Source: Dethiobacteria bacterium
GTDB taxonomy: Bacteria; Bacillota; Dethiobacteria; DTU022; UBA8154
NCBI GenBank assembly: GCA_050942615.1
Contig: JBMNNQ010000001.1
Coordinates: 12,385-76,384, forward strand
DNA: 64,000 nt
Direction: 5' to 3'
In this document: one piece after another, positions 9,813 through 62,645 of the stretch
Layout: the number at the start of each line of letters is the position of its first letter
Numbering within the stretch: position 1 is the stretch's first letter
Translations under genes and position numbers: made by a program
Notes under the pieces: generated by a model
Told to the model about the DNA's origin: nothing
The model's input: the letters and a program-made list of their open reading frames with translations, nothing else
The model's database searches: none

Positions 9813-10451
9813 CTATGCATTCCTCTTCCAGATAGAAATGCGCTCCAGGGTTGTTAAAAAACGGGCTACAAATAACACTACATCCGTTGGTCTGTTAATA
9901 GCCAGTGTTTTACCCAATGCCTTGCCGCCCACTGTTAAAGCGGATACCGCTCCTGCCAAAAAAATACTCAAAATAACTTCACTTAGTATTGGGTTACCCC
10001 GGACAAGGTTAACCACGATCACTGTCCCAATGATGCCGCTTACTATGCCGCTGATGTCCCCGATGACATCATTACAAAAGCTGGCCACCAGATCTGCATG
10101 GCGTACGAGAAAAATGCTTTTTTTTGCACCATAAATTTTTTTAGCCGCTTTGGCATGAAAAGGTATCTCCTCTGCCGCAGTAACGGCAGTGCCAATCACG
10201 TCAAAAAAAATGCCCATAAAAATAATGAAAATGAGAAGCATAAAGGAAATCAGCATGGAATGCAGGTTTTGCAACAAGGAGTGTGTGATCAGGGTAAGGG
10301 CTATGGCCAAAAAAAAAGTCCAAATACTGACTAAAACCACCCAGCGTTTATTATTTTTACTTTTCCATTGTTTTTGCCGTTGTTTTTTTGTGCCCAATAA
10401 TATTACGCTCGCTGCCATATAATATGATAATGATAAAAGTGGCAGCTCCAT
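9813..10451 (-). CDS. oapA: OLE-associated membrane protein OapA-like (multi-TM). Start uncertain: 10451 or 10499
   Basis: Polytopic membrane protein encoded immediately downstream of the OLE-like RNA and upstream of dxs. This is the conserved ispA-OLE-oapA-dxs arrangement. Sequence identity to characterised OapA could not be checked here. Confidence 0.6.
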   Translation of the reverse strand: MELPLLSLSYYMAASVILLGTKKQRQKQWKSKNNKRWVVLVSIWTFFLAIALTLITHSLLQNLHSMLISFMLLIFIIFMGIFFDVIGTAVTAAEEIPFHAKAAKKIYGAKKSIFLVRHADLVASFCNDVIGDISGIVSGIIGTVIVVNLVRGNPILSEVILSIFLAGAVSALTVGGKALGKTLAINRPTDVVLFVARFLTTLERISIWKRNA

Positions 10452-10454
10452 GGG

Positions 10455-11065
10455 TAAACTTTGCGGCTTAAGGTCCAGCAGGTTTTCCCAAATGTTCACC
10501 GGCTTGTCACCAAGCGGCAGTTTCCTATTAAGAACATCTCTGCTGTGTTACCACCAACAGGGCTGGATTACCACTTAGACCACACCTTAATCCCCATGGA
10601 GCCTCCCTACGACGGGGAACAGCCTAGGAGTTTTCCTCAATGCCGCAACATCGTTTTCTATCCTTTTTTGCAGCCCTGGTTTCCTAAGGGATGTTCCCTT
10701 CCTCCCCCAAAGCCACTCAAGGCAGGCTACACTGTGCACAGTTTTGACCACACACAGGTTCTATCCTAAGCCGTAACCTTTTACCCCTACAGTAATACGC
10801 CACCAACTTAGGTCTCCACGAAGGCAGGGTCAACGCCTACATGCCTTTGTAGATCGCCCCGTCCTTCTTAACCCCCAGCACCGACCCCCGTCTGGGCTTC
10901 GGCCGCCGGCACCAGGAACTTCATCGATATGCCTTGAGCGGTTTTTCCCGCCCGCTTTCAAAAACGCTTGCGGCAACTAGGATACTGCACCACTATGTCC
11001 AGTTAAATTATAGCATATCATCCCTGGCAACTCAACGCTATTCCCCGGGCGAAAAGTCTAGGGGT
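10455..11065 (-). ncRNA. ole: OLE (ornate, large, extremophilic) RNA candidate
   Basis: About 600 nt with no protein-coding capacity in any frame, GC-rich with many short complementary segments. It lies exactly between ispA (stop at 11066) and a multi-TM gene followed by dxs, which is the diagnostic genomic context of OLE RNA in anaerobic Firmicutes. A TATAAT-like element sits near 10995-11010 on the minus strand. RNase P and tmRNA motifs were not found. Confidence 0.7.
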
Positions 11066-11983
11066 CTAGTAGTCCCGATAGAAAGCCCGGCGGGTAATTT
11101 TCTTCAGGGAAAAACTCTTTTCACCGAATATAGACAGCTCCCCGACGGCCTGTTCATATAGTTGGTCCCTTTTATTTTTTGCGGCAGCCAGACCGTAGTA
11201 GGAAACATAGTTGGCCTTTCCTCTTTGTGCATCCTGCCCACAAATTTTCCCCATTTTTTCAGTGTCACCTTCAACATCCAGCAGATCGTCAACAATTTGG
11301 AAGCCCCTGCCTAACAGGCGGGCATAGGCGGTCAAACCGGCCAGCTCGGCGGCTGTGGCTCCACCCAACAAAGCGCCGGCACGCACAGAGGCTGTGAGCA
11401 GCTTTCCTGTTTTATGGGTATCAATGTATTGCAGGGTTTCCAGGTCAACGGATTTACCTTCGGAGTCAAGATCAACTGCCTGTCCCCCAACCATACCCTG
11501 CACCCCGGCTGAGGTTGCTATTTCCCCGATTATTTTTAATTTAATTTCCGGGCTGGTTTCTAACTGATAATAATTGCAAAAAGCATTTTTCTTTTGCCTG
11601 TCCACAGCCAAAACTTCAAAGGCCAAGGTTAACAATGCATCCCCGGCCAGTATAGCGACGGCTTCACCAAAGACCTTATGCGAAGTGGGCTGCCCCCGCC
11701 TGTAGTCATCATCATCCATGGCCGGCAGATCGTCATGGATTAAGGAATAAGTATGCATGAATTCGAGGGCACAGGCTACCGGCAGGGCGTTTTTCCAGTC
11801 TGCCGTAAAGAGCTCCATTGTGAACAGGACCAGCAGCGGCCGAAGACGCTTGCCGCCGGCAAAAACACTGTAACGCATGGCACGGTGAATGCCTTCGGGG
11901 TACTGATCTTCAGCCGGCAAATAATAATTCAAAGCACTGTCAATTAAAGTTTTTCTGGTTTCCAATAATTCATCAAACTTCAT
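11066..11983 (-). CDS. ispA: Farnesyl diphosphate synthase / (2E,6E)-farnesyl diphosphate synthase
   Basis: First and second aspartate-rich motifs (LIHDDLPAMDDDDYRRG and FQIVDDLLDVEGD). The start was chosen at MKFDELL, which lies downstream of the xseB stop. Confidence 0.9.
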   Translation of the reverse strand: MKFDELLETRKTLIDSALNYYLPAEDQYPEGIHRAMRYSVFAGGKRLRPLLVLFTMELFTADWKNALPVACALEFMHTYSLIHDDLPAMDDDDYRRGQPTSHKVFGEAVAILAGDALLTLAFEVLAVDRQKKNAFCNYYQLETSPEIKLKIIGEIATSAGVQGMVGGQAVDLDSEGKSVDLETLQYIDTHKTGKLLTASVRAGALLGGATAAELAGLTAYARLLGRGFQIVDDLLDVEGDTEKMGKICGQDAQRGKANYVSYYGLAAAKNKRDQLYEQAVGELSIFGEKSFSLKKITRRAFYRDY

Positions 11984-12041
11984 TTTTGGACTCCCCGGCC
12001 AGTTTTCAGCCTCTTTGATTATCTGAGGCACCTTTTAGTAT

Positions 12042-12284
12042 TTATTCTTCTTCAAATACTTCAAATGCCGTTAATTCACCATTTTGTAGTAACGTTTCCA
12101 CCTTATATTCTGCTTTGCTAAGCAGCTTTCGGCAATGCTGGGCCAGCTTCAACCCTTCTTCCAGATGTTGAAGTGACTTTTCCAGGCTAAGTTCACCTTT
12201 TTCCATTTGTTCGCTAATAGCTTCTAACTTTTGTAAGGCTTCTTCAAACTTTAAATTCAAATCCTTGGGTTTTTCCGGGCGCAC
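12042..12284 (-). CDS. xseB: Exodeoxyribonuclease VII small subunit
   Basis: 80-aa helical protein (FEEALQKLEAISEQMEKGELSLEKSL) directly downstream of xseA. Confidence 0.9.
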   Translation of the reverse strand: MRPEKPKDLNLKFEEALQKLEAISEQMEKGELSLEKSLQHLEEGLKLAQHCRKLLSKAEYKVETLLQNGELTAFEVFEEE

Positions 12285-12298
12285 TTTTAAACCCTCTT

Positions 12299-13528
12299 TC
12301 AGCCGTCCTGTAATTTTTTTCTGTGTATATCCTTAACCTCACAATCTGCTTGGCCATCGTGAAAAACAACGTGAATCCTTTGCCCTTTTTTTAGAAAATT
12401 GATGCTGTCTACCGGCAAGCTGTGCTGATCGTTGATCAGAGTAAATCCCCGTTTTAGAACATTTGCAGGATCCAGGGCCTTCAGTTTTTCCTCCGCGCTG
12501 TAAAGTGCCGATTTTTTAAATTTTAAACTGTAGGCCAGGTTTTGTTCCAATCGCTGTCCTATTTCATCAATACGCTGGTAACCCTGGTTAATTCTTTCCT
12601 TTAAATACCTTAAATGTACTGCCGGTGAAAGATTTTTCAGGATAAGCCTTTTTCCCCGCAGGAAGCCTTGCCAGCAGCTTAGCAATTGACGCTCCTGCAT
12701 TTTCAAGTGCTGTAAAAGATCTTTTTTCCGGGGGGCAATTAACTCCGCTGCGGCCGTGGGCGTTGAGGCTCTGATATCTGCTACAAAATCGGCAATTGTA
12801 AAGTCTGTTTCGTGTCCGATAGCGCTGATGACAGGCGTTTTCAGTTTATATAGAGCATAAGCCAGCGCTTCATCGTTGAAAGGCCATAGTTCTTCCAAAG
12901 AACCGCCTCCCCTGGTGATAACGATGACTTCCACACCTGCGTAATCGTCCAGTTTTTTCAAGGCATCTATAATCTGCCCGGGGGCCTCGGGCCCCTGAAC
13001 GGTTACGGGATAGAAAAGAACATGAACACAGGGGAACCTTCTTTCCAAAGTTGTTAAGAAGTCTTTAATTGCCGCCCCGGCAGGGGAGGTAACCAACCCG
13101 ATGCAACGCGGCAGGCGGGGTAAGGATTTTTTCCGGCCGGTATCAAAAATCCCTTCTCTTTTCAGTTTTTCTTTTAACTGTTCAAACGCCAGGTATAGTG
13201 CTCCAATGCCTTCCGGCTTCAATTCTTCAACATATAGTTGGTAATATCCGCTTCGTTCATAAAGTGAAACGTTCCCCCTGGCGACAACCTTCATTCCTTC
13301 TGTCGGCATAAAATTTAACCTTCTATTTTTACTGAGGAAGAAAACGCAGCGGATAACACTATTTTTATCTTTTAAAGTAAAATAAATGTGCCCCGAAGGG
13401 CGGTGACGTTTAAAATTTGAAATTTCACCTAAAATTGAAATGTTTTGCAGCAATCCATCCTGGAACAACAGGCCTTTTATATATCCGTTTACCTGGGAAA
13501 CGGTGTAGATACCTTTTTCCGGGGTCAT
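12299..13528 (-). CDS. xseA: Exodeoxyribonuclease VII large subunit
   Basis: 409 aa with an OB-fold N-terminus (YTVSQVNGYIKGLL...ISNFKRHRPSGHIYFTLKD). Its start overlaps the stop of the third folD paralogue. Confidence 0.9.
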   Translation of the reverse strand: MTPEKGIYTVSQVNGYIKGLLFQDGLLQNISILGEISNFKRHRPSGHIYFTLKDKNSVIRCVFFLSKNRRLNFMPTEGMKVVARGNVSLYERSGYYQLYVEELKPEGIGALYLAFEQLKEKLKREGIFDTGRKKSLPRLPRCIGLVTSPAGAAIKDFLTTLERRFPCVHVLFYPVTVQGPEAPGQIIDALKKLDDYAGVEVIVITRGGGSLEELWPFNDEALAYALYKLKTPVISAIGHETDFTIADFVADIRASTPTAAAELIAPRKKDLLQHLKMQERQLLSCWQGFLRGKRLILKNLSPAVHLRYLKERINQGYQRIDEIGQRLEQNLAYSLKFKKSALYSAEEKLKALDPANVLKRGFTLINDQHSLPVDSINFLKKGQRIHVVFHDGQADCEVKDIHRKKLQDG

Positions 13529-14382
13529 GATGTTCTTGCCGCCGTATCAAGAAGGTTTGTAAGCAACATGGAAATGGTCACCGGGCCAACCCCTCCCGGC
13601 ACCGGTGTTATCCAACCGGCAACTTTTTTTACACCCCAGTAATCGACATCTCCTACCAAACGGGTTCCGATCAAATTAACACCGACATCGATCACAATGG
13701 CACCCTTTCTAACCATTTCAGCGGTAATCAGGCGTGGGTTACCGGTAGCCACAACGAGCAGCTCTGCCCTTTTGGTAAAGGGGATTAGGTCCGGAGTTTG
13801 GGAATGACAGATACTGACGATTGCTTTTTTATTCAAAAGCAGGGCGGCTACAGGTTTGCCGACAAGCTCACTGCGCCCGACAACGACAGCCTGTTTGTTT
13901 TCCAGGTTTACCTCTGTAGCTTCAATTAATTTCATAATCCCTTTGGCTACATAGGGTACCAGCGGAGGGTTGCCCCTGCAAAGGTTCCCCATATTTTGAA
14001 AATGGAGACCTTCAATGTCTTTATGAGGAGCGACCAGTTGAGAAATATATGTGAAGTTAAAATGGGGGGGGAGCGGATGAATATTAATACCGTGGATCCC
14101 CGGGTCAGCGTTTAGCCGTTTAAGCAGTTGGCTGAGCTCTTCTTTGGTGGTTTCTTCCGGCAGGCAATGGATCTGGCAGTTGATACCAAGTTGCCGGCAG
14201 GCCCTTTCTTTCAAGCGGGCTACATGGATGCGGGCGGCAGGATTTTGAAGAACAATGATCGCCAGGCCGGGTGTTGTTTCTTTTTTCTTCAAGGTTGCAA
14301 TTTTTGTTCTTAACTCTTCCCGTACTTTCCTGGTGATCTGAACACCGCTGATTACCCTTGCAGACAAAATTTTCCCCTCCAT
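13525..14382 (-). CDS. FolD-family paralogue 3 (divergent methylene-THF dehydrogenase/cyclohydrolase-like)
   Basis: FolD fold with GLAIIVLQNPAA, DIEG (canonical DVDG) and a conserved PVPGGVGPVT. The catalytic YxxxK region is altered (RIHVARLKER). The start was chosen at MEGKIL. Confidence 0.7.
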   Translation of the reverse strand: MEGKILSARVISGVQITRKVREELRTKIATLKKKETTPGLAIIVLQNPAARIHVARLKERACRQLGINCQIHCLPEETTKEELSQLLKRLNADPGIHGINIHPLPPHFNFTYISQLVAPHKDIEGLHFQNMGNLCRGNPPLVPYVAKGIMKLIEATEVNLENKQAVVVGRSELVGKPVAALLLNKKAIVSICHSQTPDLIPFTKRAELLVVATGNPRLITAEMVRKGAIVIDVGVNLIGTRLVGDVDYWGVKKVAGWITPVPGGVGPVTISMLLTNLLDTAARTS

Positions 14383-14476
14383 AACCATCCAACAAAGTGG
14401 CTGTTTCAAAAAAATAAATAAGGGAAAGAGCACAAGCTATTAACGGGGCAAGTTCTCAATGCTCCTTCCCGCATCA

Positions 14477-15343
14477 TTAGTGTTGCATGCCGAATAATGT
14501 TTGTTTAAAGGCTTGTAACGTATTCTTCATCAGCATGGTAATGGCTAGGGGGCTGTCTTCACCTGCCGGCAGGGTAAAGATACAACCTGCCACTTTTTCA
14601 ACCTCTTTTAGAACAAACCCACTGGCCTGTTCTGGGCCGTCAGGGGTTGTCCCGATGTCCATGACCATGGCTCCCGGTTTAACCCAGTCGCCTTTAATCA
14701 GCCCCGGTTTCCCTGTTTCGGAAACAAGTATATCTGCAGTACGGCAAATTTTGGGCAGATCGCTGCTTAAAACAGGGCAAAAAGTTACCGAAGCATTTTT
14801 TTTGAGCAATGCCAAGGTTAAAGGCCGGCTGACAACGCCCCTGCGGCTGATCAGTACCGCTGTTTTACCCCCGATGGGCTGCCCGGCAAAGTCGAGCACC
14901 TGCATCAGGGCATAAACGTTACAAGGTAAAAACCCTTCGTTTCCACTGAATAGTTTCCCGGCATTAATCGGGTGCCTGCCGCCGACATCCTTCCCGGGAT
15001 CAATAGCGGCTAAGATCTCTCTTTTCTGCAGGGTTTCCGGCAGGGGCAGTTGGCAGAACAGACCCTGAACCCGGCTTTCCTTGTTTAGCTGCCGTATGGT
15101 TATACAGATATCATCCTGGGAAGCAGTTGCAGGTAAATAACGTATATCAGCATAGAAACCTAATTTTTCACATTGTTTCTCTTTACAACGAACTGAGGCT
15201 AAGGAGGCAGGGTCTTCACCCACGACAACCATGCCCAGACCAGGAGCTTTGTCTGTTTTTTGCTTTAGCTCCTTTAATTCTGCGATGATCCCAGCGCAGA
15301 CCTTGCCCCCCACTTCCGCCTCTTTAAGTAACTTCACAGGCAT
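14477..15343 (-). CDS. FolD-family paralogue 2 (highly divergent; catalytic motifs degenerate)
   Basis: 288 aa. GLGMVVVGEDPAS is conserved, but DVGG replaces DVDG and PAGEDSPLAITM replaces PGGVGPMT. The conserved catalytic-motif Tyr is replaced (ASVRCKEK). Confidence 0.65.
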   Translation of the reverse strand: MPVKLLKEAEVGGKVCAGIIAELKELKQKTDKAPGLGMVVVGEDPASLASVRCKEKQCEKLGFYADIRYLPATASQDDICITIRQLNKESRVQGLFCQLPLPETLQKREILAAIDPGKDVGGRHPINAGKLFSGNEGFLPCNVYALMQVLDFAGQPIGGKTAVLISRRGVVSRPLTLALLKKNASVTFCPVLSSDLPKICRTADILVSETGKPGLIKGDWVKPGAMVMDIGTTPDGPEQASGFVLKEVEKVAGCIFTLPAGEDSPLAITMLMKNTLQAFKQTLFGMQH

Positions 15344-15370
15344 AGTAGTTTACTGCCTTGCTTTTTATTT

Positions 15371-16255
15371 TTAGCCTTCGTTCAGTCTGATGGCTGCTTC
15401 AACAGTGTTATAAAGAAGCATGGTTACCGTCATGGGGCCTACGCCACCGGGGACGGGGGTGATAAAGGATGCTTTTTCCTTCACTGTTTCAAAGTCCACA
15501 TCACCGGCCAGGCGGAAACCGCTCTTCCGGGATTCGTCAGGAATTCTGTTTACGCCCACGTCAATCACTACGGTTCCTTCTTTCACCATGTCAGCGGTGA
15601 TGGCATTGGGCCTGCCCATGGCTGCAATCAGAATGTCAGCTTGTTTTGTAAAGTAAGAAATGTCTTTGGCGCCGGTATGCACAACAGTGACCACAGCGTT
15701 GGCACCTTCAGCTTTTTGCATCAGAATTGCGGCCAGCGGTTTGCCGACAATGTTGCTGCGGCCACAAACAACAACGTGTTTGCCTGCCGGATCGTTGCCG
15801 GAACGGAAGAGCAGCTGCTGGACGCCGTGGGGTGTACAGGGCAGCGGGCAGGGCTCGCCCCTGAGCAGTTTACCCACGTTTACCGGGTGGAAACCGTCGA
15901 CGTCTTTTTCCGGGGAAATGAAGCTGATCACTTTTTCAACGCTGATATGATCGGGCAGGGGAAGCTGTACCAAGATGCCGCTAAATTTGGGATCCTTATT
16001 TAGGCCGTCGATAACCTTAAGCACTTCTTCCTCGGGTACATCAGCCGGGAGACGAATTGTTTCTTCAAACATGCCAATTTCCTGGCTGCCCTTGGCTTTA
16101 CTGGTTACATAAGAAATAGATGCCGGATCTTCCCCCACCAAAACCACACCCAAGCCTGGAACAATGCCCTTTTCCTTTAATTCGGCAACCTTTCCTTTAA
16201 GCTCCTGCCTGATCTCCTTGGCCACTTCGTTTCCAGAAATAATCTTTGCCGTCAT
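15371..16255 (-). CDS. folD: Bifunctional 5,10-methylene-THF dehydrogenase / 5,10-methenyl-THF cyclohydrolase (canonical)
   Basis: 294 aa with all FolD hallmarks present: GLGVVLVGEDPASISYVTSKAK, DVDGFHP and PVPGGVGPMTV. Confidence 0.92.
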   Translation of the reverse strand: MTAKIISGNEVAKEIRQELKGKVAELKEKGIVPGLGVVLVGEDPASISYVTSKAKGSQEIGMFEETIRLPADVPEEEVLKVIDGLNKDPKFSGILVQLPLPDHISVEKVISFISPEKDVDGFHPVNVGKLLRGEPCPLPCTPHGVQQLLFRSGNDPAGKHVVVCGRSNIVGKPLAAILMQKAEGANAVVTVVHTGAKDISYFTKQADILIAAMGRPNAITADMVKEGTVVIDVGVNRIPDESRKSGFRLAGDVDFETVKEKASFITPVPGGVGPMTVTMLLYNTVEAAIRLNEG

Positions 16256-16366: not shown

Positions 16367-17785
16367 TTATAATGTTTTTAAATATTCATCCATTGCCCGG
16401 GCCGCGACCTTGCCGGCGCCCATGGCCAGGATTACTGTTGCCGCCCCTGTAACGATATCACCGCCGGCGTAAACCCCTTTGCGGGAGGTGGCTCCTACTT
16501 CGTCAGCCTCGATTGTTCCCCAACGGCTGATTTCCAGATCAGAGGTGGTCTGCGGAATAAGCGGGTTGGGACTCTGGCCGATGGCAATGACAATTGTATC
16601 CACATCAAAAATAAATTCTGAACCTTTAATGGGGACTGGACGTGCCCTGCCGGAATCGTCCGGTTCACCCAGTTCCATCTTGATGCATTCCATACCCTTT
16701 ACCCAACCGTTTTCATCACCGATAATCTTGACGGGGTTGGTTAACAGGTTGAAGACAACGCCTTCTTCTTTAGCGTGTTCAATTTCTTCGGCACGGGCCG
16801 GCATTTCCTTATCTGAACGGCGGTATACAATGTGCACCTCTTCGGCGCCCAGCCGCAAGGAGGTGCGGGCGCTGTCCATGGCTACGTTACCCGCCCCGAC
16901 CACAGCTACTTTTTTACCCAGTTTGATCGGTGTGTCATAGTCGGGGAATAAGTAGGCCTTCATCAGGTTTGCCCTGGTTAAAAATTCGTTTGCAGAAAAA
17001 ACGCCGTTTAGGTTTTCCCCCGGAATGTTCAGGAACATGGGCAATCCTGCCCCGGTGCCGATAAAAACAGCCTGGAAGCCCTCTTCATCAAAGAGTTCAT
17101 CAATTGTTATGGTTTTCCCTACAACAACGTTTGTTTTAATATCAACACCCAGGCTGGCAATATAATCAACTTCCCGCTGGAGAACTTTTTCCTTGGGCAG
17201 CCGGAATTCAGGGATGCCGTAACGGAGGACCCCGCCTGTGGCATGGAAAGCTTCAAAAAGAACAACTTCATGTCCCATCCTGGCTAAGTCGCCGGCAGCA
17301 GTCAACCCGGCTGGGCCGGCACCGACAATGGCCACGCGCTTACCGGTAGAGGGCGGCTTGGGAGGCGTTTCCACCCCTTTGGCCAGTTCATAATCTGCCA
17401 GAAAGCGTTCCAACCGGCCGATGGCCACCGGTTCGCCTCTTTTACCGCGCACACAAAAGGATTCACATTGGCTTTCCTGGGGACAGACACGCCCGCAGAC
17501 TGCCGGCAGGTTATTTTTTTCTTTCAGCTTTTTAATGCCCTCGTCAAATTTTCCTTCAGCAACTAAACCGATAAAACCGGGAATATCCACTTCCACCGGG
17601 CAACCTTCAACACATTCAGCCTCTTTACACTGCAGGCAGCGGTTGGCTTCCTTTATTGCTGTTTCAGCATCATAACCAAAGGGCACCTCATTATAGTTTT
17701 TAACACGATCCTGGGGTGTCTGTTCGGGCATCGGATGCTTTTCTTTCATTCTGCGTAATTGCTTAATTTGGTCTTTGTCCAACAT
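16367..17785 (-). CDS. nfnB: NfnB/SudA-like NADPH-dependent oxidoreductase large subunit (GltD-like, 2x[4Fe-4S] + FAD/NAD(P))
   Basis: CLQCKEAECVEGCP and CGRVCP...C cluster motifs, two GxGxxG dinucleotide folds. The ATG at 17785 overlaps the nfnA stop (TAATG) and follows a GGAGGTG RBS. Confidence 0.8.
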   Translation of the reverse strand: MLDKDQIKQLRRMKEKHPMPEQTPQDRVKNYNEVPFGYDAETAIKEANRCLQCKEAECVEGCPVEVDIPGFIGLVAEGKFDEGIKKLKEKNNLPAVCGRVCPQESQCESFCVRGKRGEPVAIGRLERFLADYELAKGVETPPKPPSTGKRVAIVGAGPAGLTAAGDLARMGHEVVLFEAFHATGGVLRYGIPEFRLPKEKVLQREVDYIASLGVDIKTNVVVGKTITIDELFDEEGFQAVFIGTGAGLPMFLNIPGENLNGVFSANEFLTRANLMKAYLFPDYDTPIKLGKKVAVVGAGNVAMDSARTSLRLGAEEVHIVYRRSDKEMPARAEEIEHAKEEGVVFNLLTNPVKIIGDENGWVKGMECIKMELGEPDDSGRARPVPIKGSEFIFDVDTIVIAIGQSPNPLIPQTTSDLEISRWGTIEADEVGATSRKGVYAGGDIVTGAATVILAMGAGKVAARAMDEYLKTL

Positions 17786-18633
17786 TAACGCCCACCTCCA
17801 CTTCTGCATTCATGTTCATATTTATCCACAGCAACTTTTTCTTCCTGCAGGTACATCTGCCCACGGCGGGTCAGCTCTACAAAATCAACCTCATGTGCAT
17901 CAAAAACAGGGCCGTCCACACAGGTAAACTTGGTCTTGCCGCCAACTGTCACCCGGCAACAGCCGCACATTCCCGTTCCATCCACCATAATGGGGTTTAA
18001 ACTGACCATGGTTTTAACCCCGTACGGTTTTGTTTGGTTGGAAACGGCGCGCATCATGGGCAGCGGTCCGACAGCAATTATTTCGTCTATTTTTTGGCTT
18101 TTATCATCGAGAAATTTTTGCAGGATGTCAGATACAAAGCCGTGATGGCCTTTTGTTCCGTCATCTGTACAAACATGGAGTTCTTTGCTGACCGCCCGCA
18201 TTTCATCCTCTAAAATAAGCAGATCGGCTGTCCGCGCCCCAATAATGGAGATTACCTCCATACCGGCCTCGTGAAAAGCCTTTACCTTCGGGTAGACCGG
18301 GGCAATGCCCACGCCGCCGCCTACAGCGATAATCCGGCCTGTGGTGGGCAATTCCATAGCCTGGCCCAGCGGCCCTACAAAGTCATTCAGGTAATCCCCT
18401 TCTTCAAGAGCCCCCAACTGCATGGTGGTTTTTCCAACTTCCTGGAAGATGATTGTAATGGTTCCTTTTTCCTTATCACTGTCGGCAATGGTTAAAGGGA
18501 TTCTTTCACCATTATCATCAACCCGTAAAATAATAAACTGCCCGGGTTGTGCCTTGCGTGCTACAAGCGGTGCTTCAACTTCCATGAGCTTGGACACATC
18601 GGCTAAAACTCTTTTTTTAACTATTTTGAACAT
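17785..18633 (-). CDS. nfnA: NfnA/SudB-like ferredoxin-NADP+ reductase small subunit (PyrK-like, [2Fe-2S] + FAD)
   Basis: PyrK-like FAD/NAD-binding domain (GRIIAVGGGVGIAPV) and a C-terminal CGCCRV...C cluster. Start at MFKIVKK, preceded by GGAGG. Confidence 0.8.
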   Translation of the reverse strand: MFKIVKKRVLADVSKLMEVEAPLVARKAQPGQFIILRVDDNGERIPLTIADSDKEKGTITIIFQEVGKTTMQLGALEEGDYLNDFVGPLGQAMELPTTGRIIAVGGGVGIAPVYPKVKAFHEAGMEVISIIGARTADLLILEDEMRAVSKELHVCTDDGTKGHHGFVSDILQKFLDDKSQKIDEIIAVGPLPMMRAVSNQTKPYGVKTMVSLNPIMVDGTGMCGCCRVTVGGKTKFTCVDGPVFDAHEVDFVELTRRGQMYLQEEKVAVDKYEHECRSGGGR

Positions 18634-18784
18634 ACAAAAACCTACCTCCTTTACAATGCCCTTTTTTACGATTAGATTCGCCATGATTATAATAAAGTCC
18701 TTTACCAAAAAGGTTGAAAAGAAATATTTATTAATACTGAATATTCTTATAATCAAAAAAACCTTCCTTGCCAGTTGGTTTTTG

Positions 18785-19228
18785 CTAGCAGGAAGGTTTC
18801 GATTCCTGATTTGTTTTCCAGATATTGTCCAGCATACCGTTTACAAAGCGTGCCGCCTCTTCATCCTGGTAAGTTTTGGTCAGCTCTATGGCTTCGTTGA
18901 TGGCCACAGCCGGAGGAGTTTCACCCAAGTAAAGCAGTTCGTAAAGTGCCAGGCGCAGTATATTGCGTACCACTGCTGACAGGCGATCAAATTGCCAGTT
19001 AATCAGGTACAGGGAAAGTGTTTTGTCCAGTTCCCCCCTTTCCTCCAGAACACCTTCGACCAATGATCTGCAAAAAAATTTTTCCTGGTCAGAAAAACCA
19101 TCATCGCCAAGCAGGTAATGAAGCGCGCAAGCAGGGTCATTTTTGCCAACTTCAATCATAAACAGTATTTTAAAGGCGTACTCCCTGGGCAACCTTCTTT
19201 TCAAAGCCTGTACCCCTTTCCAGGGCAA
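18785..19228 (-). CDS. nusB: Transcription antitermination factor NusB
   Basis: About 147 aa. The REYAFKILFMIEV N-terminus and the position downstream of asp23 match the yqhY-nusB-folD order of B. subtilis. Confidence 0.85.
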   Translation of the reverse strand: MPWKGVQALKRRLPREYAFKILFMIEVGKNDPACALHYLLGDDGFSDQEKFFCRSLVEGVLEERGELDKTLSLYLINWQFDRLSAVVRNILRLALYELLYLGETPPAVAINEAIELTKTYQDEEAARFVNGMLDNIWKTNQESKPSC

Positions 19229-62524: not shown

Positions 62525-62645
62525 TTAGAACCCTGTCTTCGGCAGCCTGGCAATCCTAGCCTGCTTTGGCAGGCCTTAGACCCATAGCTTTGCGTCCCTT
62601 TCTTTCAAAAGGTTTGCCTTTATCGGTCAGTAAGCTGGTTACTTT
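62525..62645 (-). promoter_or_regulatory. GEMM-I (c-di-GMP-I) riboswitch aptamer candidate
   Basis: Minus strand reads AAAGGCAAACCUUUUGAAAGAAAGGGACGCAAAGCUAUGGGUCUAAGGCCUGCCAAAGCAGGCUAGGAUUGCCAGGCUGCC. This matches the GEMM-I core GGCAAACC-(GAAA hairpin)-GGGACGCAAAGC (compare Vc2 GGCAAACCAUUCGAAAGAGUGGGACGCAAAGCC) and is followed by a second hairpin and then a terminator. Located 5' of the tad/flp genes. Confidence 0.65.

Follow-up and report, generated by a model that had tools for sequence, protein, structure and literature searches.

FolD is a near-universal enzyme of one-carbon (C1) metabolism, is usually encoded by one gene in bacteria, and is an antibacterial and anticancer drug target. 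According to a survey of the family, most bacteria carry one folD gene only, and ancient duplications of it are absent from prokaryotes (PMC11064299). Why, then, should a bacterium carry three folD genes side by side, and do the three proteins do the same thing? The question is raised by a 64,000-nucleotide stretch of DNA from a Dethiobacteria bacterium (contig JBMNNQ010000001.1 of assembly GCA_050942615.1, positions 12,385 to 76,384; called the window below), whose host belongs to an uncultured anaerobic Bacillota lineage found in biogas digesters. The genes, numbered in the order in which they are read, are:

15371..16255, minus strand: folD copy 1, canonical long-type, 294 aa (PF02882, 217.6 bits; PF00763, 135.1 bits)
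14477..15343, minus strand: folD copy 2, degenerate paralogue, 288 aa (PF02882, 130.0 bits; PF00763, 92.5 bits)
13525..14367, minus strand: folD copy 3, remodelled paralogue, 280 aa (PF02882, 199.7 bits; PF00763, 91.3 bits)

The reading that we favour, with moderate confidence, is a two-step history of folD at this locus, in which copy 1 would be the working FolD, copy 3 a specialised NADP-binding derivative and copy 2 a probable pseudoenzyme.

Three FolD paralogues under purifying selection

Each of the three proteins contains both the catalytic domain PF00763 and the NAD(P)-binding domain PF02882, above gathering scores (E 1e-26 to 1e-65), which confirms the original prediction, made from the letters alone, of three co-oriented tandem FolD paralogues. 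None of them reaches the NCBIfam FolD cut-offs (365 bits versus 530 for copy 1, 225 versus 411 for copy 2 and 295 versus 421 for copy 3). Identity to copy 1 is 37% for copy 2 and 41% for copy 3, and between copies 2 and 3 it is ~29%. AlphaFold2 models of copy 2 (pLDDT 94.3, pTM 0.91) and copy 3 (pLDDT 91.2, pTM 0.89) are confident FolD folds that superpose on solved FolDs at TM ~0.9, with PDB 5o2a among the fold matches.

The motifs of the three copies were compared by alignment to 264 canonical FolDs and to solved structures. Residues are numbered after the human MTHFD1 DC-domain sequence, which agrees with 30 out of 30 residue numbers printed in PMC3368264. Folate is contacted by Tyr52, Lys56, Gln100, Leu101, Asp125, Gly273 and Gly276, and NADP by residues that include Thr148, Arg173, Ser174, Ile176, His196, Ser197 and Ala215, the 2′-phosphate being bound by Arg173, His196 and Ser197; cyclohydrolase activity requires Gln100, which positions Lys56, and the pterin head is bound by Asp125 (PMC3368264, PMC3338484). 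Tyr52, Lys56, Gln100 and Asp125 are invariant in the 264 canonical FolDs save one sequence (Tyr in 263/264, Lys in 264/264), and this lone exception is a member of a sister clade of copy 3. Outside the clades described here, Tyr52, Gln100, Leu101, Asp125 and Thr148 are invariant in 264/264 canonical FolDs.

The full YxxxK motif is present only in copy 1 (copy 2 has Ser and Lys, copy 3 His or Val and Lys), as is the pair of Gln100 and Asp125 (Gln and Gly in copy 2, His and Glu in copy 3). The NADP-site sequence (G172-R-S-x-I-V-G178, His196/Ser197, Ala215 and the PGGVGP loop) is found in copies 1 and 3, and not in copy 2. The loss of motifs first read by eye survives careful alignment, not all of the catalytic residues being conserved in every copy. 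The array had, however, been described as progressively degenerate, and this does not hold: there is no positional gradient of decay, the middle copy being the worst affected and the distal copy carrying a fixed, clade-wide signature.

The loci compared with the window are given L-numbers (L007, L011, L014, L031, L033, L034, L039 and others). Between the window and L011, L034 and L007, copy 1 is 98, 92 and 91% identical, copy 3 85, 69 and 65%, and copy 2 82, 51 and 53%. The ratio of nonsynonymous to synonymous substitution rates (dN/dS; Nei-Gojobori method, window versus L011, the least saturated pair, with dS 0.34-0.80) was 0.022, 0.153 and 0.097 for copies 1, 2 and 3, respectively (Fisher p versus neutrality 3e-33, 1.9e-24 and 2e-37). 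Overall, the values for copy 3 span 0.05-0.10. The counts behind the value for copy 2 are 57.5 nonsynonymous differences over 657 sites and 83.5 synonymous differences over 201 sites; its reading frame is unbroken in every lineage, and synonymous sites are saturated between lineages. All three copies, the most degenerate one included, are kept by purifying selection. Pseudogene status of the two divergent copies is excluded by dN/dS together with the unbroken open reading frames (ORFs). At one locus (L010, 1951-4037) copy 3 and the following gene, xseA, are split into several short ORFs on a contig of 1.5x coverage, most likely through sequencing error and not pseudogenisation.

Relatives carry the same triplet. 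Exactly this array is also found on contigs of independent JGI, ENA, Logan and NCBI assemblies, and for several of these contigs the sample label is that of a biogas fermenter; its presence in independent assemblies from these four sources excludes an assembly or binning artefact. At the level of sequence evolution we infer a clear case of enzyme duplicates taking on new roles. The neofunctionalisation originally proposed stands at that level, in view of the purifying selection and of the copy 3 signature, invariant in 56 sequences, and its details need the corrections given here.

Copy 3 has a fixed and rebuilt folate pocket

The clade of copy 3 comprises ~50 clusters at 90% identity, with a small sister clade. 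In 56/56 members Gln100 is replaced by His, Leu101 is deleted and Asp125 is replaced by Glu, and Tyr52 is absent from 56/56, with His in its place in 55. In copy 3 itself residue 52 is Val in a gapless alignment, or His if the register is moved by one residue, and Cys-Thr-Pro147-149 has become Phe/Tyr-Val-Ala. Lys56, Arg173, Ser174, His196, Ser197, Gly273 and Gly276 are retained, and five of these (Lys56, Arg173, His196, Gly273 and Gly276) are invariant in the clade. The distal copy had been credited with DIEG, an unaltered PGGVGP and an altered Lys region; the first two are there, but Lys56 is conserved in all three copies, and it is Tyr52 and its neighbours that have changed.

Because the derived states are fixed in 55-56 of the 56 clade members, the pocket is conserved and derived, not decaying; judged from the alignment, copy 3 is remodelled and not degenerate. 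Such an invariant derived active-site signature is the pattern expected for a changed function. When 1.84 billion representatives were searched exhaustively with a profile, a single one stood for the whole clade at 50% identity, and no wider spread of the signature was seen among the 16 top matches inspected, of which 1 carries it and the other 15 are canonical. One FolD representative (P0386, 385 aa) has an internal tandem repeat of ~95 residues that takes in the end of the Rossmann domain and may be either an assembly artefact or a real internal duplication.

Since Lys56, a carboxylate at position 125 and the NADP site are retained, copy 3 most likely remains an enzyme that binds NADP(H) and has a folate or pterin as its substrate. 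Changed cofactor specificity, one of the possibilities raised in the original prediction, is not indicated for copy 3: the loss of 2′-phosphate binders that goes with NAD specificity was not found (Arg173 and His196 in 56/56, Ser197 in 50/56). The E. coli mutant enzyme Q98H has an unchanged structure, ~8% dehydrogenase and ~1% cyclohydrolase activity and poor carolacton binding, and K54N has 19% dehydrogenase and no cyclohydrolase activity (PMC5688156); the silkworm mutants Y49A and D120A have no measurable efficiency for methylene-tetrahydrofolate (methylene-THF) (PMC6443876). By analogy with such mutants, copy 3 is probably biased towards the dehydrogenase reaction, with little cyclohydrolase activity, or changed in its substrate binding.

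Could copy 3 be a divergent but otherwise ordinary bifunctional FolD isozyme, with substitutions that compensate for each other, and the array a means of gene dosage or differential regulation? The retention of Lys56, of a carboxylate at 125, of Gly273/Gly276, of Arg173/His196/Ser197 and of the whole fold would agree with this, as would the normal housekeeping position of the gene, coupled to xseA, and a hairpin between copy 3 and the upstream cassette (see below) that would permit separate regulation. We consider this unlikely, however, since the residues lost from copy 3 are those invariant in canonical FolDs (Tyr52, Gln100, Leu101, Asp125 and Thr148), the equivalent of its Gln100 change suffices on its own for the low activities of E. 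coli Q98H (PMC5688156), and the silkworm Tyr-to-Ala change abolishes substrate affinity (PMC6443876). Moreover, all loci examined encode, besides copy 3, either a second FolD (canonical or near-canonical) or copy 1, for which there would be no need if the standard reactions were carried out by copy 3. Copy 3 has another FolD with it in all cases, and losses have never fallen on copy 3, a distribution that argues for a role that is not redundant with canonical FolD.

The change of Gln100 to His is the same as Q98H, a product of laboratory selection for resistance to carolacton, and the key contacts of carolacton are Tyr50, Lys54 and Gly261 (PMC5688156), of which the Tyr is also lost in copy 3. 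This might suggest that copy 3 is an inhibitor-insensitive FolD that shields C1 metabolism from carolacton-like natural products. Such a role is highly improbable: the surroundings are housekeeping genes, without biosynthetic or resistance genes in the window, the clade has a long history, with many further changes in its signature, the sensitive canonical copy 1 is kept alongside, and there is no evidence of such inhibitors in anaerobic digesters.

Copy 2 has lost the cofactor site but not its fold

In copy 2 the substitutions reach both substrate and cofactor sites: Tyr52 is replaced by Ser, Asp125 by Gly, Thr148 by Asn, Gly172 by Ser, Ser174 by Arg, His196 by Pro, Ser197 by Val, Ala215 by Glu and Gly274 by Glu. 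The corresponding motifs read DVGG, SRRGVVS at 172-178 (Gly178 being replaced) and PAGEDSP instead of PGGVGP; the DVGG, the PAGEDSP and the loss of Tyr noted by eye are thus upheld by the alignment, which places Ser at 52. Ser49, Lys56 and Gln100 are retained. The clade of copy 2 comprises ~11 clusters at 90% identity. Within its derived subclade Pro196, Glu/Asp215 and a non-acidic residue 125 are found in 8/8 sequences and Glu274 in 7/8, while Lys56 and Gln100 are kept in 7/8 each.

As the folate anchors Tyr52 and Asp125, the 2′-phosphate binders and the glycine loops are lost, and acidic residues have entered the cofactor site, copy 2 should not perform the canonical NADP-dependent reaction. 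It retains the FolD fold, its catalytic and cofactor residues are replaced, and it is under purifying selection, features that make it a probable pseudoenzyme. Its retention under selection points to a non-catalytic role. The idea of a regulatory or non-catalytic subunit, put forward in the original prediction, is reasonable for copy 2, whose NADP and pterin contacts are gone, and because FolD is a dimer it is possible that copy 2 acts as the dimer partner in a FolD heterodimer.

Alternatively, copy 2 might be a relic without function, left over from a redundant duplicate that is about to be deleted, and only copies 1 and 3 would matter. It evolves the fastest (51-53% identity where copy 1 shows 91-92%), its clade is not uniform at catalytic positions (some members have Ile, Thr or Glu instead of Lys56, and position 125 is Gly, Ser, Cys, Glu or Gln), it is absent from L031 and L032, and its ribosome-binding site is weak. 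The dN/dS of 0.15 with p 1.9e-24 versus neutrality and the frame unbroken in every lineage nevertheless make a relic unlikely, as do the fixation of Pro196, Glu/Asp215 and Glu274 in the derived subclade, which is not random, and the modelled fold at pLDDT 94.3.

The reactions of FolD might also have been split between the copies, for example with the dehydrogenase reaction left to copy 3 and an NADP-independent cyclohydrolase reaction to copy 2. Acetogens and yeast are known to have monofunctional enzymes. Derived copy 2 keeps Lys56 and Gln100 (7/8 each) as well as Ser49 and has lost the NADP site, copy 3 keeps the NADP site and has lost Gln100, and the upstream copy at L033, in which Lys56 is replaced by Ile, might be a dehydrogenase only, by analogy with K54N. 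Such subfunctionalisation is decidedly unlikely, however, since copy 2 lacks Asp125 and Tyr52, both needed for folate substrate binding, and since the canonical bifunctional copy 1 makes a split unnecessary in the lineages with the triplet; in addition, copy 2 is dispensable in L031.

Copy 1 is a canonical FolD next to NfnAB-type genes

Copy 1 has YxxxK, DVDG and PGGVGP, with canonical substrate contacts and 2′-phosphate residues, and the alignment to the 264 canonical FolDs bears out its original description as canonical. Ser197 is Thr in copy 1, as in 78/78 members of its clade, and it differs from the human sequence only at the more variable NADP contacts 216, 218, 221, 236 and 238. It evolves very slowly (90-98% identity between lineages, dN/dS 0.02-0.04) and belongs to a very conserved group of long-type FolDs. 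The >120 clusters of this group at >=76% identity point to strong constraint on copy-1-type FolD or to its lateral spread. At two further loci (L041 and L042, 6001-8722), a copy-1-type FolD 78% identical to that of the window lies in a thyX-folD-fhs neighbourhood.

The two genes upstream of copy 1 are adjacent and overlapping, and both score above the curated cut-offs for the two NfnAB/SudAB subunits; we take them to be Nfn from established knowledge of the NF004862 and TIGR01316 families. Copy 1 and NfnAB would plausibly link the interconversion of methylene-THF and methenyl-THF to the exchange of electrons between NADPH and ferredoxin/NAD. The C1 or Wood-Ljungdahl-type setting suggested in the original prediction is borne out in part: NfnAB-type neighbours here, and neighbours resembling formate dehydrogenase (FDH) and NuoEF at other loci, fit C1 and NADP(H) redox metabolism, but the 64-kb window has no Wood-Ljungdahl genes, its other genes being those of sporulation, DNA repair, isoprenoid synthesis and pili.

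Organisation of the locus

The other features of the conserved block, from its upstream boundary to its downstream end, are as follows:

18785..19228, minus strand: nusB (PF01029 NusB, E 4e-35), upstream boundary, position constant across related loci
18750..18804, minus strand: hairpin and U7 directly past the nusB stop, terminator-like by its features (dG -22.2 kcal/mol)
17785..18633, minus strand: NfnA/SudB-type FAD/NAD-binding small subunit (NF004862, 423 bits, cut-off 220; PF10418, PF00175)
16367..17785, minus strand: NfnB/SudA (GltD-like) NADPH-binding large subunit (TIGR01316, 603 bits, cut-off 471.75; PF14691, PF07992)
14408..14475, minus strand: hairpin (14417-14475) and U-rich run (to 14408) in the gap between copies 2 and 3, terminator- or attenuator-like
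12299..13528, minus strand: xseA, exonuclease VII large subunit (PF02601, PF13742)
12042..12284, minus strand: xseB, exonuclease VII small subunit (PF02609, E 3e-17)
11066..12031, minus strand: ispA-type polyprenyl synthetase, downstream end of the conserved block (PF00348, E 1.5e-55)

The window is a housekeeping block with spo0A, spoIVB, recN, nadK, tlyA, dxs, OLE, ispA, xseB, xseA, folD, nusB, asp23 and spoIIIA. An order from spo0A through xseBA-folD-nusB to spoIIIA is usual for Bacillota, as in Bacillus subtilis. By gene order, copy 3 is the one that holds the ordinary (ancestral) housekeeping folD slot. The window contains no 16S rRNA gene. A full-length ornate large extremophilic (OLE) RNA (10423-11009, minus strand; RF01071, 443 bits) lies between ispA and dxs and is followed by an ORF for an OapA-like membrane protein (9813-10499, minus strand; weak CNNM match), forming the classic OLE locus of anaerobic Bacillota. 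A c-di-GMP-I riboswitch (62538-62628, minus strand; 85.8 bits) stands upstream of a Flp/Tad-type pilus cluster with genes for T2SSE ATPases, T2SSF proteins and an RcpC/CpaB-domain protein.

The gene for the small Nfn subunit likely starts at ATG 18633, with AGGAGG upstream and orthologues called at 282 aa; the start of nfnB overlaps the stop of nfnA, and nfnB orthologues are called at 472 aa. Copy 1 is preceded by a gap of 111 nt and a strong ribosome-binding site (AAGGAGG), copy 2 follows copy 1 after 27 nt with a weak ribosome-binding site, and copy 3 follows copy 2 after 109 nt that contain the hairpin and the U-run. The ORF of copy 3 was called at 13525-14433 on the minus strand; its start is most likely TTG 14367 and not 14433, because GGAGGGG lies 6 nt upstream, orthologues are 279-280 aa long, and the N-terminus then aligns with MTAKIISG of copy 1. 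The stop of copy 3 overlaps the start of xseA in ATGA (13525-13528), the sole true overlap among the folD junctions, and the same overlap was read in the window, L011, L034, L007, L014 and L033, with L039 overlapping too. Judging from this overlap, xseA is translationally coupled to copy 3. The original statement that all three copies are coupled into xseA therefore applies to copy 3, and not to the junctions with gaps of 27 and 109 nt.

The features of an intrinsic terminator (a GC-containing hairpin and a U-run) were found both after nusB and after copy 2, making both sites putative terminators. The hairpin after nusB (U7, dG -22.2 kcal/mol) has a z-score of -5.7, with 0/200 shuffles folding as well. 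That after copy 2 has dG -20.5, z -1.9 and the U-run UUAUUUAUUUUUUU in the window; L011 has it too, with a compensatory change of G-C to A-U (z -3.0), and sequences at the same site in L034, L007 and L014, which do not align with it, also fold (z -3.6, -3.7 and -5.3). The two hairpin and U-run elements bracket nfnAB-folD1-folD2 like an inserted cassette, so that nfnA-nfnB-folD1-folD2 would seem to form a unit with at least some insulation from folD3-xseAB-ispA. A scan for consensus promoters and terminators gave counts at shuffle level and missed the hairpin after copy 2, whose loop exceeds 8 nt. No cis-regulatory RNA (ZTP, THF, T-box or any other Rfam family) was found in the operon, even at E<=1.

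A proposed two-step history of the array

The related loci form a series. At L039, of the sister clade, the order is nusB, tsaD, folD-A, folD-B and xseA; folD-A is fully canonical, and folD-B has His100, the Leu101 deletion and Glu125, yet still has Thr148 and Pro149. At L014 and L033 an FDH/NuoEF-like complex precedes a near-canonical folD-A (Lys56 replaced by Ile in L033; Tyr by Phe and Asp by Glu in L014), a folD-B with the full signature, and xseA. L007 has the triplet, with an unbroken NADP site in the middle copy, and the window, L011 and L034 have the triplet with the NADP site of the middle copy lost. At L031, nfnAB is followed by folD1 and folD3, the middle copy being absent, as it also is from L032. 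L039_A is closest to the less degenerate copy-2 forms (56%), and in a neighbour-joining tree all middle copies form one clade with near-canonical forms nearest its base.

Directly upstream of folD-A and folD-B, L014 (16-5978) and L033 (1-6025) encode three proteins that make up an unusual Bfu-type complex resembling formate dehydrogenase. Two of these are a NuoE-like 2Fe-2S protein and a NuoF-like flavoprotein; the third, of 1241 aa, fuses a 2Fe-2S domain, a GltD-like NADPH module and ferredoxin domains to a molybdopterin oxidoreductase. At L036 (7001-10219 of GCA_900198705.1, one 3.3-Mb record) folD1-folD2 is followed by an MTTB-family methyltransferase gene and not by folD3-xseA; the genes upstream are unrelated, the record looks like concatenated contigs of a metagenome-assembled genome (MAG), and the junction may be artificial.

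From this series we infer the following order of events: an old A/B tandem duplication, remodelling of B, later insertion of a cassette with nfnAB and folD1, and then the decay or loss of A. In the first step the resident folD between nusB and xseA would have been duplicated in tandem into an upstream canonical A and a downstream B. B, which corresponds to copy 3 of the window, would have stayed joined to xseA and have gained, then frozen, the rebuilt folate pocket. In the second step a cassette of NfnAB-type genes and a highly conserved canonical FolD, copy 1, would have been inserted upstream. Copy 1 would now provide the standard bifunctional activity, genetically linked to NADP(H) redox balancing, and the old partner A, corresponding to copy 2, would have been freed from that job. 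A would have been deleted in one lineage; in the lineage of the window it would have lost Tyr52, Asp125 and the NADP site and been kept by purifying selection as a well-folded protein. Its most plausible role would then be that of a pseudoenzyme subunit, without catalysis of its own, in FolD, which is normally a dimer.

Several observations weigh against this account of the locus. The order of events is based on gene order across the loci together with a rough neighbour-joining tree, instead of on a rooted phylogeny of the species. Copy 3 might retain both activities in full, since data from single-residue mutants may not carry over to at least six co-evolved pocket changes, and a cofactor-independent, cyclohydrolase-type activity of copy 2 is possible with Lys56 and Gln100 kept. 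The sole hint of a heterodimer is that the dimer-interface segment of copy 2 is its best conserved part (0.69 versus 0.58 for the N-domain), a small difference, and the absence of copy 2 from L031 makes it dispensable in at least one lineage. Codon usage (effective number of codons and GC content at third positions) did not differ consistently among the three copies and gave no indication of higher expression of copy 1. Finally, all database members of these clades are metagenome or MAG proteins with a generic bifunctional FolD label.

A bolder version of the proposal is that the copy-3 clade represents an enzyme derived from FolD that has so far gone unrecognised and is specific for a new substrate or reaction, and that copy 2 is a non-catalytic subunit in heterodimers with copy 1 or copy 3; we offer it as a tentative idea that is rather doubtful at present. 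If it were true, copy 3 might be, for example, a dehydrogenase dependent on NADP(H) whose C1-pterin substrate is modified or bound in a different way, or one working in one direction only, and FolD paralogues would provide a bacterial regulation of the 'prozyme' type that tunes C1 flux in syntrophic or acetogenic Bacillota. The genes adjoin NADPH-linked electron-bifurcating oxidoreductases, in a lineage of anaerobic digesters, and for this reason the specialised copies may bear on NADP(H) balance during C1 oxidation and reduction in digester organisms.

Comparison with known systems

The array is a clade-restricted variation on a well-known family and opens no new field. Within that scope, the copy-3 clade would serve as a natural test of the residues that set dehydrogenase and cyclohydrolase activity and inhibitor binding, including as it does the carolacton-resistance substitution, and the series of middle copies, from a canonical enzyme to a cofactor-less protein under selection, would be useful for studying the origins of bacterial pseudoenzymes. 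In the literature on multiple or tandem folD genes, on FolD pseudoenzymes and on folD with NfnAB in syntrophs, we found no description of the array or of its clades.

All copies share the two-domain fold and length of canonical FolDs (E. coli 1B0A/5O28, P. aeruginosa 4A5O and T. thermophilus 6V6Y; E 1e-42 to 1e-66, TM ~0.9). Copy 1 matches these at the catalytic and 2′-phosphate contacts, whereas copy 3 differs at Tyr52, Gln100, Leu101, Asp125, Cys147, Thr148 and Pro149, and copy 2 at Tyr52, at Asp125 and in its dismantled NADP site. The yeast enzyme MTD1 (PDB 1EDZ) has the FolD fold and has lost the cyclohydrolase through changes at the positions of Lys56 and Gln100. It is a monofunctional, NAD-dependent methylene-THF dehydrogenase and a possible functional analogue of copy 3; in copy 3 Gln100 is lost (to His), but Lys56 and the NADP site are retained. 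MTD1 is, however, distant in sequence (E 3e-06 to copy 2) and NAD-specific, whereas copy 3 keeps Lys56 and the residues for the 2′-phosphate of NADP. E. coli FolD Q98H (PDB 5O2A; PMC5688156) carries the Gln-to-His change that is fixed in the copy-3 clade, but as a single laboratory mutation in an otherwise canonical enzyme, whereas copy 3 is a natural, conserved paralogue with at least six further pocket changes.

For copy 2, a model would be the trypanosomatid AdoMetDC prozyme and deoxyhypusine synthase, in which an inactive duplicate is reported to be kept under selection as a subunit of the oligomer (PMC5201418, PMC3663545); these are enzyme families other than FolD, and copy 2 would be a putative partner. 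Its nearest precedent is the N-terminal domain of vertebrate MTHFD1L, which is homologous to FolD, inactivated and retained (PMC11064299). There the dead module is fused to an active formyl-THF synthetase, whereas copy 2 is a stand-alone bacterial protein encoded beside an active paralogue.

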